A program made the translations under genes and the position numbers. Positions 54,391 through 60,510 of a DNA stretch of 64,000 nucleotides are shown one piece after another (position 1 is the stretch's first letter; each line of letters starts with the position of its first letter). This DNA comes from Nanobdellota archaeon. GTDB taxonomy: Archaea; Nanobdellota; Nanobdellia; Pacearchaeales; GW2011-AR1. The notes under the pieces are model-generated. The model did not search any database. It worked only from the letters and a program-made list of their open reading frames with translations, and had not been told where the DNA came from. The DNA lies in NCBI GenBank assembly GCA_030647125.1, contig JAUSKC010000013.1:2249-66248 (forward strand), given 5' to 3'.

Positions 54391-57300
54391 CTAAACTATT
54401 TGGGTAACCGAATTCGTTGCACTAGAACTATACTCATTATAATACTTAATAACATTAGGGACATGAGTACTTTTTGCACGGATTAACTTTTCTTCCTTAA
54501 CCTTCCCATTTAAATTTTGTACACATTGATCATAATTAATAAAAGTTCCACCAACTTTACAATTACTAACAACAACAGAAGGACCGACATTGTAAGCTAA
54601 AGCCAAAATTCTTGGATTAGTTATTTGATAATTACTCCTTAAACAAGAAACATAACAAGTTCCAACTAAAATATTTCTCCTGTTAGCAATTCCATTAATA
54701 TCAGTCGTACTAGCAAATTGTGAAAGCAATTGCGCTCTGCTCGTAGACAAAGTAGAATAACCTATATTACTCAAATCAGCCGAACATGAAGGAACACAAA
54801 TCCCATCGATAGAATGAGTATTAAGATTAACAAAATCACTTAACATGCCATCTTCTTTTGCAGGAGTCAACTGCATTAAACCGATATCAGGAGTGCTTGC
54901 TGGATTCCAATCACTCTCTTGTGTTATTAAGGCCCTCACAAAATTTGCATTAACATTATATTTACCAGTTACTTCAATAACATAACTTGTCAAAGCGCTT
55001 TCAACATCACTATTGCTCGTAGAAATACGAACATTCTGACTATCAGAACTTAAAACATCATAATTTAAATTAATGCTATCAAAACTTGAAGTAGTTGCAG
55101 TTACTCCTCCACTAGTTCCTGTTTCAGTCGTCGTTCCGCTCGTCTGCGAATTAACAATCATATCAACAACTCCAAGCAAATCAGAATTTGTAACACTTGA
55201 ACTAAAAGTATTAGAAGTAACAGGAATATCTTTCAAATTCTCCCCATCATCAACTTTCCAGACCCCATCATAATAAAAATGATAACTTGTTGAACCGGAA
55301 GTCGCGCTAAAATAAAAGTCCCCTATGCCCAAACTTTGCGAACTTACAATTATATTTGCAATAGATTGTTTATTTTCATTAGTTAAACCAACAAAAGGAT
55401 CAGAAAATGTTCCACTTCCCGTAGTCGACACACCGCCGCCAACTTGATTTGTACTTAGTATGGTCTGTTGTGAAATAGCTTTATTATTTTCATCCTCAAA
55501 ATCCTGCGTCGCCAAAATTCCATAAGCTACTGCTCTCAAGAACAATATCTGTACCTTATTTGTATCCAACAACGATTGAGAAATTAAATTCTCAGTAATG
55601 TAACTTATTTTTTCAGCCGGACTCATTGCATTAATTTTATTCAATTCCATGTTTATATCAAATGAACTCGTCTGACCCAAAGCATTTATAACACTCGAAG
55701 ATAAACCTTGCAATGTATCGTTCTCAATTCCTATTCCTTTAATTGCTTGCTTAACGCTTTGCGTATCAATATAACAATTTAATCCTGCCGTCCCGCAACT
55801 TCCAACTTGAACCCAACGAGCATTTGCCCCTCCATCCAAAGGATCAGTTCCTTTTCCTGGGCTTGAAGTAGAACACACACGAACAATTCCTTGATTGTAC
55901 AATTGCGGATTCAAAACTTGATTCGCGCCTTCTTGAACATTTGGCTGAACTAAACTATAAACACTCGGCGTTCCTGAAACACACTCTTGTTCAGTTTTTA
56001 CTGTCTGCGTCGCTTGCTCTTTCAAATACTGATCATTCAAATAATTCAAAGCAAATGAAGTTGTAACTTTTTGGAAGCCGCAATCATCTTTTCCGTTGAC
56101 AGAAATACACATCTGTTGATATCCTGTCGGAGCAAGAATATCTTTTGTTTCTGATGCCGAGCCGCCACGTTTAATATAACCAGAATCAACAACTAAAAGT
56201 TGATTTGTCTGGTAATAAGAGCTTCCAACTGGCGCCTTCAAGTAAACTTGGAAATAAGCACCTTGATCATTTCCAGAATAAATATGATAAAAGACCTTAT
56301 ACTGCGAAGTTGAAGGCACTGTAGCCGTTGTGTAAGGAATTTCGCTGAACCATCCTTGATATTGATTTGGTGAATCAGGAGCAAGCAAGTTATCTAAGAA
56401 TTTTCCACTATTAGGGTAATTTGCCGACGCGAACGCCTTACAAACTGTGCTTCCAACTTCATTTGTCGACCTAGCTTGGAACGCCTTATACGATTGAGCT
56501 CCATAATAATTAACCATATAATCAATTGAATTCTGCGCATTTGTCCAAGCACTTTGAATTCCTAAATATTCTCCACCGCCATGCGACGTCTTTCCTGAAA
56601 CAACTTCCAAAAGTTTCGGAACTAAAAGATTTGCAACTGGAATTGATTGTCTCCACAAAAATTCACACATATAAATACTATTAATCTCGTCACAAATTCC
56701 AACAGTTCTCCCAGTATCTAAATTATCTTGCAAACACATTTGATAATCTTTCATTACAGAAATTAAATCATCAACTCCTGCTTTAACTCCAGTTAAACAA
56801 ATAGGAACTTTAACTTCCGGGAAATTAGGCAAGCAAAGAGCGACACTTCCTATAATTCCGGATTGAATAACATTATCAACATGGTACGAACCACCTAAAT
56901 CACATCTTGAAGATGGACAAATTACCGGGTCGCAAACATTAAATAATAAATTACAATTTGCAGGACTCATGAAATCAGTGCATTCAATATCCGGAACATT
57001 TGTAGCTGGATTTCCAACTTTAATTGTCTGTCCGTTAATAACAACTTGAGTTACTCCTGCCTTGTATTGTCTGCTAGCTTGAGTAATTGCATTTATCGCT
57101 TGCCTTACTAAACTTTGAGTTTGCCCTTCAGTAAGCCCTGGGAAAGATCCGTAAATCGCTCCAGTTCCAGGATTAAATTCTGTGCAAGTGTCATCGCCAA
57201 ATCCTGAATCAGCTTGTGCTCTCCCATTAGCACCAACATTACAAAGCAAGAAACTTGCAGGAGCTCCTGATTGATCATACGTCGCTGTAGCTCCTCCAAC

Positions 57301-60300: not shown

Positions 60301-60510
60301 TCCAAGTGGAGCAATCTGCAAAATAAAATCAGCCCCATTAGCATCACACCTTATATTTGAATACTGCCCGACATTTAATCCTTGAGAATTCAAATAATTA
60401 AAAGCATCCGGCTGAGAATACTGAACATAAGAGCTTGTATAACCAGAAACAAAATTAAATAATAAAATCCCATATAAAAAAATTGTTAAAAAGATAAATT
60501 TTTTATTCAT
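54391..60510 (-). CDS. giant secreted surface protein (2039 aa) with C-terminal lytic transglycosylase (SLT) domain
   Basis: Sec-type signal peptide (LTIFLYGILLFNFVSG), long S/T/G/N-rich beta-like regions, Cys-rich segment; C-terminal ALITQESDWNPAS...GLMQLTP...NILVGTCYVSCLR...ALAYNVGPSVV is a canonical SLT domain (~54568..54948). Confidence 0.8.
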   Translation of the reverse strand: MNKKFIFLTIFLYGILLFNFVSGYTSSYVQYSQPDAFNYLNSQGLNVGQYSNIRCDANGADFILQIAPLGCTPMVVRSDLLEEENVPVFCPIVATKINPLIDVKAIEHMDIGFSSGTQRPAAISGIGFYPARAALSYSSGTLLNSPVLSNVGYAVIVLKQQQNESAMPDFVEGNLTATIRYDIQKAFGIGQSQYVLPVLSESDWNNNFVGYGFWNGRGYLRVNDVTNNDATISVYADKTQRTYSVTLQKGASSGQIAIPGFYCNAYMRVHLDDIQNPGTIAKVEINGNVFDLSEGQSFAENRCQAYNVLKQGLNKRVSVRCTTDSGSQSFDLITSPSVKLDVGGNPIVKNVGELVHSINGQNAYLVYTGSYSKDASGKPNLDSMNTGDLYVYLYETTNSNLEASTLSTITNTINSKFRAGDISSFSILGGEVVPFGAAQTVDPKIKLSTSVFGSDLKVVGYSTGVNKFDFSNKQGSNFFKALSDYNRIVSSYGSVNNGGVTYGESSLFAAIKLAFGVHEYSKATELCGRFVQLYSTSPLLVQVQNQCGDTLALSNGAASSKTLLINGVATTIGLNDVVEPSPNDYSANILFGSESVQLGKEQKHEDSSSGEFIQLVNLDDNTATVSVKAVSTIKDDKAGFASNQNLILQKNKAVAVGDKTIILTGINLHKVAKVSLIPEINNVNSQANFSFKLGIEKRAIQLAPDQIQSKINNLNQSIAKWEGISKNLGTVVTGFKAACLTTGAFLTVSNFISNTGGKAIARQNVMTGPGGWNSKCQQLFSQKKYSSVSTCLLENNDEINTDVDKLSQIITEYSKNPVTDSNAGTQLQQIASGLPAVITDPNNQNNNIDVAEVKSVFTQKGYSDGQVQLSEARDISTWNAVLANNPSPELEQIAKANLYSTLKTIQTRSETYTKITNSVSEAAGKGINGLNFNVFVDKDLKPGVYNGAVAGANSYGIISGTPVAGAIVSSGEYIVSLKDAGNGNYVPDNVYDLAGGAASDENTKLVKSRYPVFVKYDSSSYNNKFIDAQVKYFETAPYKGMPAQVPFDLSNGWYTYTKQTLPGALANIAGVGGATATYDQSGAPASFLLCNVGANGRAQADSGFGDDTCTEFNPGTGAIYGSFPGLTEGQTQSLVRQAINAITQASRQYKAGVTQVVINGQTIKVGNPATNVPDIECTDFMSPANCNLLFNVCDPVICPSSRCDLGGSYHVDNVIQSGIIGSVALCLPNFPEVKVPICLTGVKAGVDDLISVMKDYQMCLQDNLDTGRTVGICDEINSIYMCEFLWRQSIPVANLLVPKLLEVVSGKTSHGGGEYLGIQSAWTNAQNSIDYMVNYYGAQSYKAFQARSTNEVGSTVCKAFASANYPNSGKFLDNLLAPDSPNQYQGWFSEIPYTTATVPSTSQYKVFYHIYSGNDQGAYFQVYLKAPVGSSYYQTNQLLVVDSGYIKRGGSASETKDILAPTGYQQMCISVNGKDDCGFQKVTTSFALNYLNDQYLKEQATQTVKTEQECVSGTPSVYSLVQPNVQEGANQVLNPQLYNQGIVRVCSTSSPGKGTDPLDGGANARWVQVGSCGTAGLNCYIDTQSVKQAIKGIGIENDTLQGLSSSVINALGQTSSFDINMELNKINAMSPAEKISYITENLISQSLLDTNKVQILFLRAVAYGILATQDFEDENNKAISQQTILSTNQVGGGVSTTGSGTFSDPFVGLTNENKQSIANIIVSSQSLGIGDFYFSATSGSTSYHFYYDGVWKVDDGENLKDIPVTSNTFSSSVTNSDLLGVVDMIVNSQTSGTTTETGTSGGVTATTSSFDSINLNYDVLSSDSQNVRISTSNSDVESALTSYVIEVTGKYNVNANFVRALITQESDWNPASTPDIGLMQLTPAKEDGMLSDFVNLNTHSIDGICVPSCSADLSNIGYSTLSTSRAQLLSQFASTTDINGIANRRNILVGTCYVSCLRSNYQITNPRILALAYNVGPSVVVSNCKVGGTFINYDQCVQNLNGKVKEEKLIRAKSTHVPNVIKYYNEYSSSATNSVTQIV

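Follow-up and report, generated by a model that had tools for sequence, protein, structure and literature searches.

A giant secreted protein of Pacearchaeota-type archaea couples a conserved scaffold to interchangeable tails, here a predicted lytic transglycosylase

The window analyzed here is a 64-kb stretch of archaeal DNA (contig JAUSKC010000013.1), and our subject is its minus-strand open reading frame (ORF) at 54391-60510, which runs over 6,120 nt from an ATG start and encodes a giant protein of 2,039 amino acids (aa). The identical protein is on deposit as a hypothetical protein from a 'Nanoarchaeota archaeon' metagenome-assembled genome (MAG). Together with the gene of a 626-aa partner directly upstream, we think it probable (roughly 60%) that the giant gene forms a chromosomally fixed two-gene operon of Pacearchaeota-type DPANN archaea, encoding a cell-surface apparatus for bacterial peptidoglycan whose tip would open or bind the sacculus. 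The protein family and its reading as a means of attacking murein have already been published; the scaffold/tail anatomy, the partner, the synteny and the swapping of tails are the additions made here.

The lytic transglycosylase domain of a secreted giant

An earlier sequence-only reading had named four hallmarks of an SLT domain at the C-terminus of the giant, and we found all of them, in the order given, between aa 1862 and 1977: ITQESDW (1862-1868, containing E1865), GLMQLTP (1877-1883), NILVGTCYVSCL (1946-1957) and ALAYNVGP (1970-1977). Against a gathering threshold of 21.3, the Pfam SLT profile (PF01464) scored the whole protein at 27.5 bits and the isolated tail at 32.7 bits. The match spans only positions 2-47 of the 117 in the profile, because an insertion of ~50 aa containing cysteines sits after GLMQ. 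As a single sequence, the tail found no match among PDB sequences, and no NCBIfam model matched the giant, the partner or the 440-aa product of the neighboring convergent gene described below. We also built a family profile from an alignment of 12 similar tails of family members, and this profile matched solved lytic transglycosylases (LTs) over the whole domain (MltC at 1e-21, Slt70 at 3e-16 and MltE at 4e-15), as well as goose lysozymes at about 1e-8. It aligned the QES motif of the giant with the catalytic ES of the solved LTs, MltC among them. Invariant in the 12 tails are E1865, S1866, G-L-M 1877-1879, N1946, G1950, Y1953, Y-N 1973-1974, G1976 and two cysteines, with Q1880 and A1972 kept in at least 90% of them. 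The predicted catalytic glutamate, encoded by the codon at 54916..54918 on the minus strand, is thus retained upon re-alignment. In an AlphaFold model of aa 1101-2039, the SLT core reached a predicted local distance difference test score (pLDDT) of 80-94, and the best Foldseek matches of this domain in the PDB were all MltC, MltE or MltF (probability 1.00, TM-scores of 0.58-0.60 normalized to MltE). Taking profile, alignment and model together, we consider it confirmed, as a prediction of domain identity, that the giant ends in a complete and intact family-1 (GH23) LT domain at aa 1843-2032 (54415..54984, minus strand).

Regarding its position among known enzymes, the domain has in common with Slt70, MltC, MltE/EmtA and MltF of GH23 family 1 the E-S, G-L-M-Q and A-Y-N-x-G motifs and the lysozyme-like fold. 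Unlike the GH23 LTs of Escherichia coli, it caps a secreted giant of an archaeon and bears the ~50-aa insertion and conserved cysteine pairs; we regard it as a divergent subtype, made by an organism that has no murein of its own. When the SLT domain alone was compared with 1.84 billion representative proteins, 19 relatives were obtained at E<=1e-3. The top three were C-termini of giant proteins, and one cluster of the shorter relatives came mainly from Aenigmarchaeota MAGs, which argues for a module that circulates within DPANN archaea and against a fresh import from bacteria. The SLT module nearest to that of the giant (P0101, 42-43% identity) sits on a scaffold that is only 38% identical. 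Homolog searches with fragments, namely the tail (aa 1791-2039) and the C-terminal domain of the convergent neighbor, returned no match and are uninformative.

The giant had also been said to be led by a signal peptide, and this holds. A hydrophobicity scan gave aa 3-25 as the sole strongly hydrophobic segment, and 45 homologs have similar N-termini. The Sec-type signal peptide is predicted to occupy aa 1-23 (60442..60510, minus strand), with cleavage between VSG and YTS. Beyond it, the scan found no transmembrane segment and no C-terminal anchor. Of the 36 cysteines in the protein, many are strictly conserved within the family, which fits an extracellular location, and Ser, Thr, Gly and Asn together make up 27-42% of the residues in each 200-aa bin.

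A conserved scaffold with exchangeable C-terminal modules

Searching with the whole protein retrieved more than 700 homologs of 1,800-3,200 aa. Their source names are Pacearchaeota, Woesearchaeota, Nanoarchaeota or 'archaeon', except for two odd genome-record labels, 'bacterium' (L034, DAIQOR010000003.1) and 'Candidatus Aenigmarchaeum sp.' (L083, DYHK01000005.1). Both of these loci have a full partner-giant pair, in L034 the pair is also followed by TFB, and the labels are probably mis-assigned MAG names. A scan for the scaffold with one genome per GTDB species gave at least 569 confirmed matches, a figure that is an upper bound on the number of genomes behind those matches, since two patterns may strike one gene. 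The scaffold occurs in several hundred species-level genomes. In 119 of the 119 top homologs, similarity (39-54%) extends from the signal peptide to residue ~1667-1672 of the giant (…RAVAYGILA) and then ends, giving a sharp scaffold/tail junction common to all of them. What defines the family is this scaffold of ~1,670 aa, and not the SLT domain.

The scaffold proper covers aa 24-1670 (55501..60441, minus strand). Modelled with AlphaFold (pLDDT 74.9), aa 1-1200 show beta-sandwich domains at aa ~60-700, a 50-residue helix and helical hairpins at 704-924, and then further beta domains, which are followed along the sequence by a Cys-rich core and a helical end. Conservation is highest at aa 41-200, 681-760 and 1001-1600. 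It peaks in a block rich in cysteines and hydrophobic in part, aa 1161-1380 (56371..57030, minus strand; NVCDPVICPSSRCDLGG…SGIIGS…CLTG…GICDEI…GGGEYLG), with 65-72% mean identity, a maximum at aa 1161-1280 and many invariant cysteines. The ectodomain had been described as beta-repeat-like with a Cys-rich module; the Cys-rich module stands, and the repeats do not, as self-BLAST detected no internal repeat in the giant and the model is a mosaic of beta-sandwich and helical parts. Internal repeats were accordingly rejected. The scaffold is large, conserved and paired with a pilin-like protein, which suggests that it is no simple spacer but an assembly for placing the tip.

Beyond the junction, the giant continues with a lineage-specific linker at aa 1671-1830 (55021..55500, minus strand), which reads FSDPFVGLT…YHFYYDGVWKVDDG… and then becomes rich in Ser, Thr and Gly, with low pLDDT. 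Among 180 tails, this linker was seen only in the giant, in its closest relative P0002 and in the related locus L008. The tails range from 36 to 1,400 aa, and in 56 of 120 at least 90 consecutive aa are new with respect to the tails before them. In the 120 homologs, SLT is present in 37, and the other tail domains include Amidase_3, Amidase_2 with M15_4, M23, VanY, M10, polysaccharide deacetylase and GDSL (precomputed identifiers PF01464 in 37 homologs, PF01520, PF01551, PF02557, PF01510/PF13539 and PF01522); Glucosaminidase (PF01832) was found as well. For 61 species-level tails, Pfam assigned SLT to 16, SLT_4 and Glucosaminidase to two each, and GH3, VanY, M10 and PT-HINT to one each. Local iterated searches placed a lysozyme-like module in 83 of the 180 tails, or 86 with three additions from a motif search. 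Here we counted only the union of the hidden Markov model searches seeded with SLT and with glucosaminidase, which converge, since the two belong to one lysozyme-like superfamily. Peculiar to the family is a Trp-rich module of ~100 aa (…YFRYxxxWxW…), present in 57 of the 180 tails and usually in two copies (for example in P0008, P0009, P0022 and P0025). It has no Pfam match, is absent from the giant and may be a binding module. The single PT-HINT domain (Pretoxin-HINT, PF07591, 44.9 bits) lies in the tail of L061:11191-13749 and is followed by ~300 aa without assigned function, a layout that would be classic for a self-cleaving polymorphic toxin. Five tails with an identical end coordinate proved to be distinct sequences with genuine stop codons.

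The closest relatives of the giant allow the replacement of a tail to be followed in the DNA. In P0002 (locus L005; also L008), the scaffold shares 88% identity with that of the giant, and the tail has Glucosaminidase instead of SLT. By blastn, L005 and the window are 87% identical from the start codon to window position ~55109 (aa ~1800), show no similarity over the following 1.37 kb (55108-53735), and are then 75% and, in TFB, 94% identical. The segment replaced (53735..55108) contains the catalytic tail of the giant and the 3' half of the convergent 440-aa gene. Among 19 protein pairs with scaffolds at least 80% identical, the tail was common over most of its length in 8 and not in 11. These comparisons show that tails are exchanged between lineages by recombination, close relatives included. 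As a separate observation on L005, the deposited start of P0002 (L005:8001-8135) lies 45 codons too far upstream, as the conserved signal peptide begins at Met46; the extra 132 nt at this 5' end have no counterpart in the window.

The gene beside the tail shares in this replacement. It lies at 53060..54382 on the plus strand, convergent to the giant gene, and encodes 440 aa: an N-terminal transmembrane anchor, then a linker rich in Pro and Thr, and a C-terminal domain that varies. Compared with its counterpart in the closest relative, the N-terminal 225 aa are 62% identical and the C-terminal domain is unrelated, having been replaced within the same 1.37-kb segment as the tail of the giant. 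Across ~90 loci, this C-terminal domain occurs elsewhere only in a membrane-anchored convergent gene right after the giant of L087 (L087:13104-13943, minus strand), the giant whose SLT tail is the most similar to ours among the loci compared. A scan of metagenomes for the C-terminal domain found only the L087 genome again, and distant relatives have no such convergent gene. With these two cases, the neighbor may be a tail-linked cognate binder, inhibitor or latch.

The partner gene and its fixed position

The partner gene (60507..62387, minus strand) overlaps the giant gene by 4 nt at ATGA, as had been noticed before. Wherever a species-level locus includes upstream sequence (76 of 76), and in three distant relatives as well, a partner homolog of 604-693 aa stands immediately 5' of the giant gene, often overlapping it. 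By this arrangement, the partner is an obligate, translationally coupled companion of the giant. The protein begins with RA/QATIFIILGIV (the slash marks the predicted cut; in the window, RA is followed by QATIFIILGIVIVAGVIAYFVFF) and consists of a hydrophobic helix of ~25 aa and an extracellular part of ~590 aa with conserved cysteines. Across 66 loci, nearly all partners carry the motif [KR][GAS]Q[VLI]T[IVL]F[IV]I, with ~20 hydrophobic residues after it; two of its positions, Q15 and F19, do not vary among 34 sequences whose identity is otherwise 40-52%. We take a [KR]-[GA]/Q motif with a hydrophobic helix to be the archaeal class III signal cut by prepilin peptidases (archaeal pilins, FlaFind-type rules), and on this basis the partner is predicted to carry a class III (prepilin-type) signal. 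The prepilin-like N-terminus suspected earlier is thereby borne out, with the cut site likely at A/Q (G/Q in relatives) and not at Q/A. The partner has no match in Pfam or among PDB sequences, and its 34 members gave no consistent Pfam signal.

Upstream of the partner (62388..62501, minus strand) lies a tRNA-Val gene (62428-62501), on the same strand and 40 nt 5' of the partner gene. Between this tRNA and the partner ATG, ~22 nt before the latter, we found the TATA-like TTTATATAA, so the operon is probably driven by its own putative promoter directly downstream of the tRNA. Over 79 species-level loci, rpS3Ae was found upstream in 52 and TFB downstream, mostly convergent, in 50, with most of the other loci ending early at contig ends. 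The locus is therefore core-syntenic, in the order rpS3Ae … partner → giant ← TFB. Its GC content (0.35-0.38) falls within the uniform range of the window (0.31-0.38).

The window itself was believed to be archaeal DNA, which is corroborated by Pfam matches to housekeeping genes of the archaeal kind: TFB, rpS3Ae, MCM, TFE, tRNA-intron endonuclease, deoxyhypusine synthase and GatDE. It also contains FtsZ, several aminoacyl-tRNA synthetases and GatA/GatB. One of the synthetases, a leucyl-tRNA synthetase of 1,020 aa (40010-43072, minus strand), has a match to Ser_hydrolase (PF06821) at aa 270-426, an unusual insertion between the matches to the catalytic domain (aa 11-227) and to the editing domain (aa 433-597); a free-standing Ser_hydrolase gene lies near the locus of the relative L088. 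A GatD homolog is encoded at 22219-23538 and a possible GatA of the Amidase family at 14525-15844. A GatB_N domain occurs in two proteins (20170-21519 and 24029-25384), of which only the second has GatB_Yqey. From these genes, both tRNA-dependent amidotransferases are apparently retained in a very small genome.

A possible apparatus for bacterial peptidoglycan

In the mechanism that we favor, the giant would be exported by Sec, with its ~1,670-aa scaffold carrying a variable C-terminal effector module. The partner would be processed by a prepilin peptidase, and its N-terminal helix would serve to anchor or assemble the complex, either at the membrane or within a pilus-like structure, keeping the otherwise anchor-less giant on the cell. 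The scaffold would hold the tip at the contact site, where an enzyme tip would locally open the sacculus of a host or prey bacterium, or bind it, and tips are exchanged between lineages through recombination. In the present case the effector would be an intact GH23 LT cleaving the bond between N-acetylmuramic acid and N-acetylglucosamine (MurNAc-GlcNAc) in murein. Surface retention via the partner, peptidoglycan as the true substrate and a bacterial host are the parts of this mechanism that we infer.

LTs cut the MurNAc-GlcNAc bond of murein. To our knowledge, pseudomurein is not a substrate for them and the producing archaeon has no murein, which makes bacterial murein the expected substrate, as the sequence-only reading had supposed. 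In silico support for this target comes from the other tails, since the same scaffold bears Glucosaminidase (PF01832), Amidase_3/Amidase_2, M23, VanY/M15, GH3 and polysaccharide deacetylase. So many murein-specific chemistries on one scaffold are the strongest argument for murein as the true substrate. We know of no cultivated member of the Pacearchaeota and of no established host for them, and all the cultivated DPANN archaea that we are aware of live on archaeal hosts. Pacearchaeota have been found enriched in the size fraction above 2.5 um, that is, strongly host-attached (bioRxiv 10.1101/2020.05.14.094862).

Several results weigh against this reading. About 35 of the 61 species-level tails have no Pfam domain at E <= 0.001, and a lysozyme-like module is missing from 94 of the 180 tails pooled, which suggests that the family is not purely directed at peptidoglycan. 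Tails with GH3, VanY or deacetylase would also be compatible with the scavenging of nutrients. No prepilin peptidase and no pilus ATPase were detected among the ORFs of at least 150 aa in the 64-kb window that were scanned with Pfam, and the processing of the partner by such a peptidase, which we think probable, is read from its motif. The best-conserved block of the scaffold (aa 1161-1380) is also the worst modelled (pLDDT 30-45 with AlphaFold2); it may fold only with membrane, oligomer or partner. Finally, Foldseek found nothing significant in the PDB for scaffold aa 1-1200, leaving the scaffold with no informative structural relative.

One could argue, first, that the giant serves nutrition, as a surface protein that digests murein fragments or dead sacculi for amino sugars and amino acids and that needs no specific living host. 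The tails with enzymes of peptidoglycan turnover (GH3, NagZ-like; VanY carboxypeptidase; deacetylase) would suit this role, as would the very reduced housekeeping genome seen in the window, and peptidoglycan of dead bacteria has been proposed as an amino-acid source for Pacearchaeota (PMC11537232). A conserved scaffold of 1,670 aa with a pilin-like partner nevertheless exceeds the needs of a digestive enzyme, and the single effector per genome, the fast replacement of tails and the one PT-HINT tail are patterns of conflict or contact between organisms. As Pacearchaeota also appear attached to hosts, we hold scavenging to be unlikely, though it is the most serious of the alternatives.

A second possibility is that the tail, or the whole giant, is shed as an antibacterial weapon that lyses competing bacteria. 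The giant indeed lacks a membrane anchor, its relatives have polymorphic C-termini and, in one of them, a self-cleaving pretoxin domain, and archaeal peptidoglycan hydrolases able to kill bacteria, prominent in Nanoarchaeota, are described in a 2025 study (PMC12352652). That pretoxin domain is found in only 1 of the 61 tails, however, and no cleavage module is recognizable in the giant between scaffold and SLT. Acting from outside, an LT by itself kills Gram-negative cells poorly, and the invariant pairing with a pilin-like protein favors an assembly bound to the cell. We consider release improbable.

Still less probable, in our view, is a purely structural role, in which the scaffold would be an S-layer-like or envelope component and the C-terminal modules dispensable accessories. 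It would agree with a near-universal, single-copy gene at a fixed core position beside TFB and rpS3Ae, and with the Sec signal, the many conserved cysteines and the Ig/cadherin-like domains. Against it, the catalytic residues of SLT are strictly conserved, tails have repeatedly been swapped for other intact enzymes and not lost, and Pfam, PDB sequence and fold searches gave no similarity to S-layer proteins.

Lastly, the giant could be a functionless relic, either of a recent bacterial transfer or of a virus or mobile element (for example, a tape-measure-like protein whose lysin domain would be the SLT). Tape-measure proteins do carry LT domains (a phage one is a weak profile match at 9e-6), and SLT is ultimately bacterial in type. 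Against this reading stand synteny with housekeeping genes across dozens of species, a locus GC within the window range, nearest SLT relatives inside the same archaeal family and the lack of any scaffold match across 50,697 phage records, 72,556 plasmids and 2.9 million viral contigs (IMG/VR). It is effectively refuted, and a viral or plasmid origin was rejected.

Returning to the peptidoglycan apparatus, proteins of the same kind reportedly appeared earlier in Rinke 2013 and Castelle 2015. The closest published family is fam00969 of Pacearchaeota and Woesearchaeota, with proteins of up to ~3,000 aa, predicted to be extracellular, with an SLT domain and a proposed role in binding or degrading bacterial cell walls, according to Castelle et al. 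2021 (PMC8204110). In Vigneron et al. 2022, a 'large lytic murein transglycosylase' is linked to predation (PMC9723730). The giant resembles fam00969 in taxa, size class, SLT domain, predicted location and cell-wall hypothesis, and with its 2,039 aa, signal peptide and SLT it fits the description of the family; membership is judged here by that description. These papers introduce the family briefly, through its SLT domain, and their accessible passages make no mention of scaffold/tail polymorphism, a pilin-like partner, core synteny or the swapping of tails between close strains. Polymorphism, partner and synteny are likewise not reported in the accessible text of the 2025 study on archaeal peptidoglycan hydrolases.

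Bacterial polymorphic toxin systems (Rhs/YD, CdiA, MafB and PT-HINT-containing toxins), reportedly treated by Zhang et al. in 2012, offer another comparison. The giant resembles them in its conserved N-terminal scaffold, sharp junction and hypervariable C-terminal effectors swapped between close strains, and one family member has a PT-HINT domain (1 of 61 tails; none in the giant itself). Polymorphic toxins use type V, VI or VII secretion systems and act as nucleases or deaminases, whereas the giant would use Sec export with a pilin-like partner and the effectors of its family are mainly cell-wall hydrolases. As for an immunity gene, the family offers only a hint with n=2, the convergent membrane-anchored neighbor that co-varies with the tail. 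By analogy, then, the architecture works like a polymorphic toxin system, though it does not clearly match one in two defining features, the dedicated secretion route and the immunity gene. Our literature search on polymorphic toxins in Pacearchaeota-type archaea gave nothing relevant, and a prior mention in work on archaeal polymorphic toxins is possible.

The giant had also been likened to the SPEARE proteins of Nanohaloarchaeota, which exceed 3,000 aa and have serine protease, adhesion and restriction endonuclease domains. A loose functional likeness stands, in that both are giant secreted proteins of DPANN symbionts proposed to act on the envelope of a host. The two have no detected domain in common, as a Pfam scan of the giant gives SLT only, and the presumed target is bacterial murein for the giant and an archaeal host for SPEARE. 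Membership among the SPEARE proteins was rejected for this reason. VirB1 and FlgJ are specialized LTs of secretion or pilus machines. Together with the giant proteins implicated in cell-wall degradation in predatory Omnitrophota (bioRxiv 10.1101/2023.11.21.568195), they are instances of very large secreted proteins or envelope-spanning machines with murein-cutting domains to cross the sacculus. The Omnitrophota giants belong to another domain of life and show no detected sequence relation to the scaffold, and the sacculus targeted by our giant would be that of another organism.

A bolder reading, which we hold tentatively and with less than even confidence, is that the operon is a universal core-genome machine of Pacearchaeota for displaying polymorphic effectors aimed at bacteria, with warheads that sever different murein bonds and are exchanged as cassettes, some of them with an immunity- or latch-like neighbor, and with a Cys-rich core that engages or penetrates the envelope of the host. 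If true, it would be an archaeal counterpart of the bacterial polymorphic toxin and contact-dependent systems, and direct molecular evidence for a major DPANN order living on bacteria.

For the family already described in print, the scaffold/tail design, the obligate partner and the swapping at strain level refine what had been a thin description. They also have a consequence for annotation, since a search for SLT alone would find about 40% of the members. A conserved, single-copy, secreted giant whose recognizable tips are mostly murein-specific is the most concrete genomic argument for an interaction of this order with bacteria, and through the anatomy of the family the question of a bacterial host becomes experimentally approachable.

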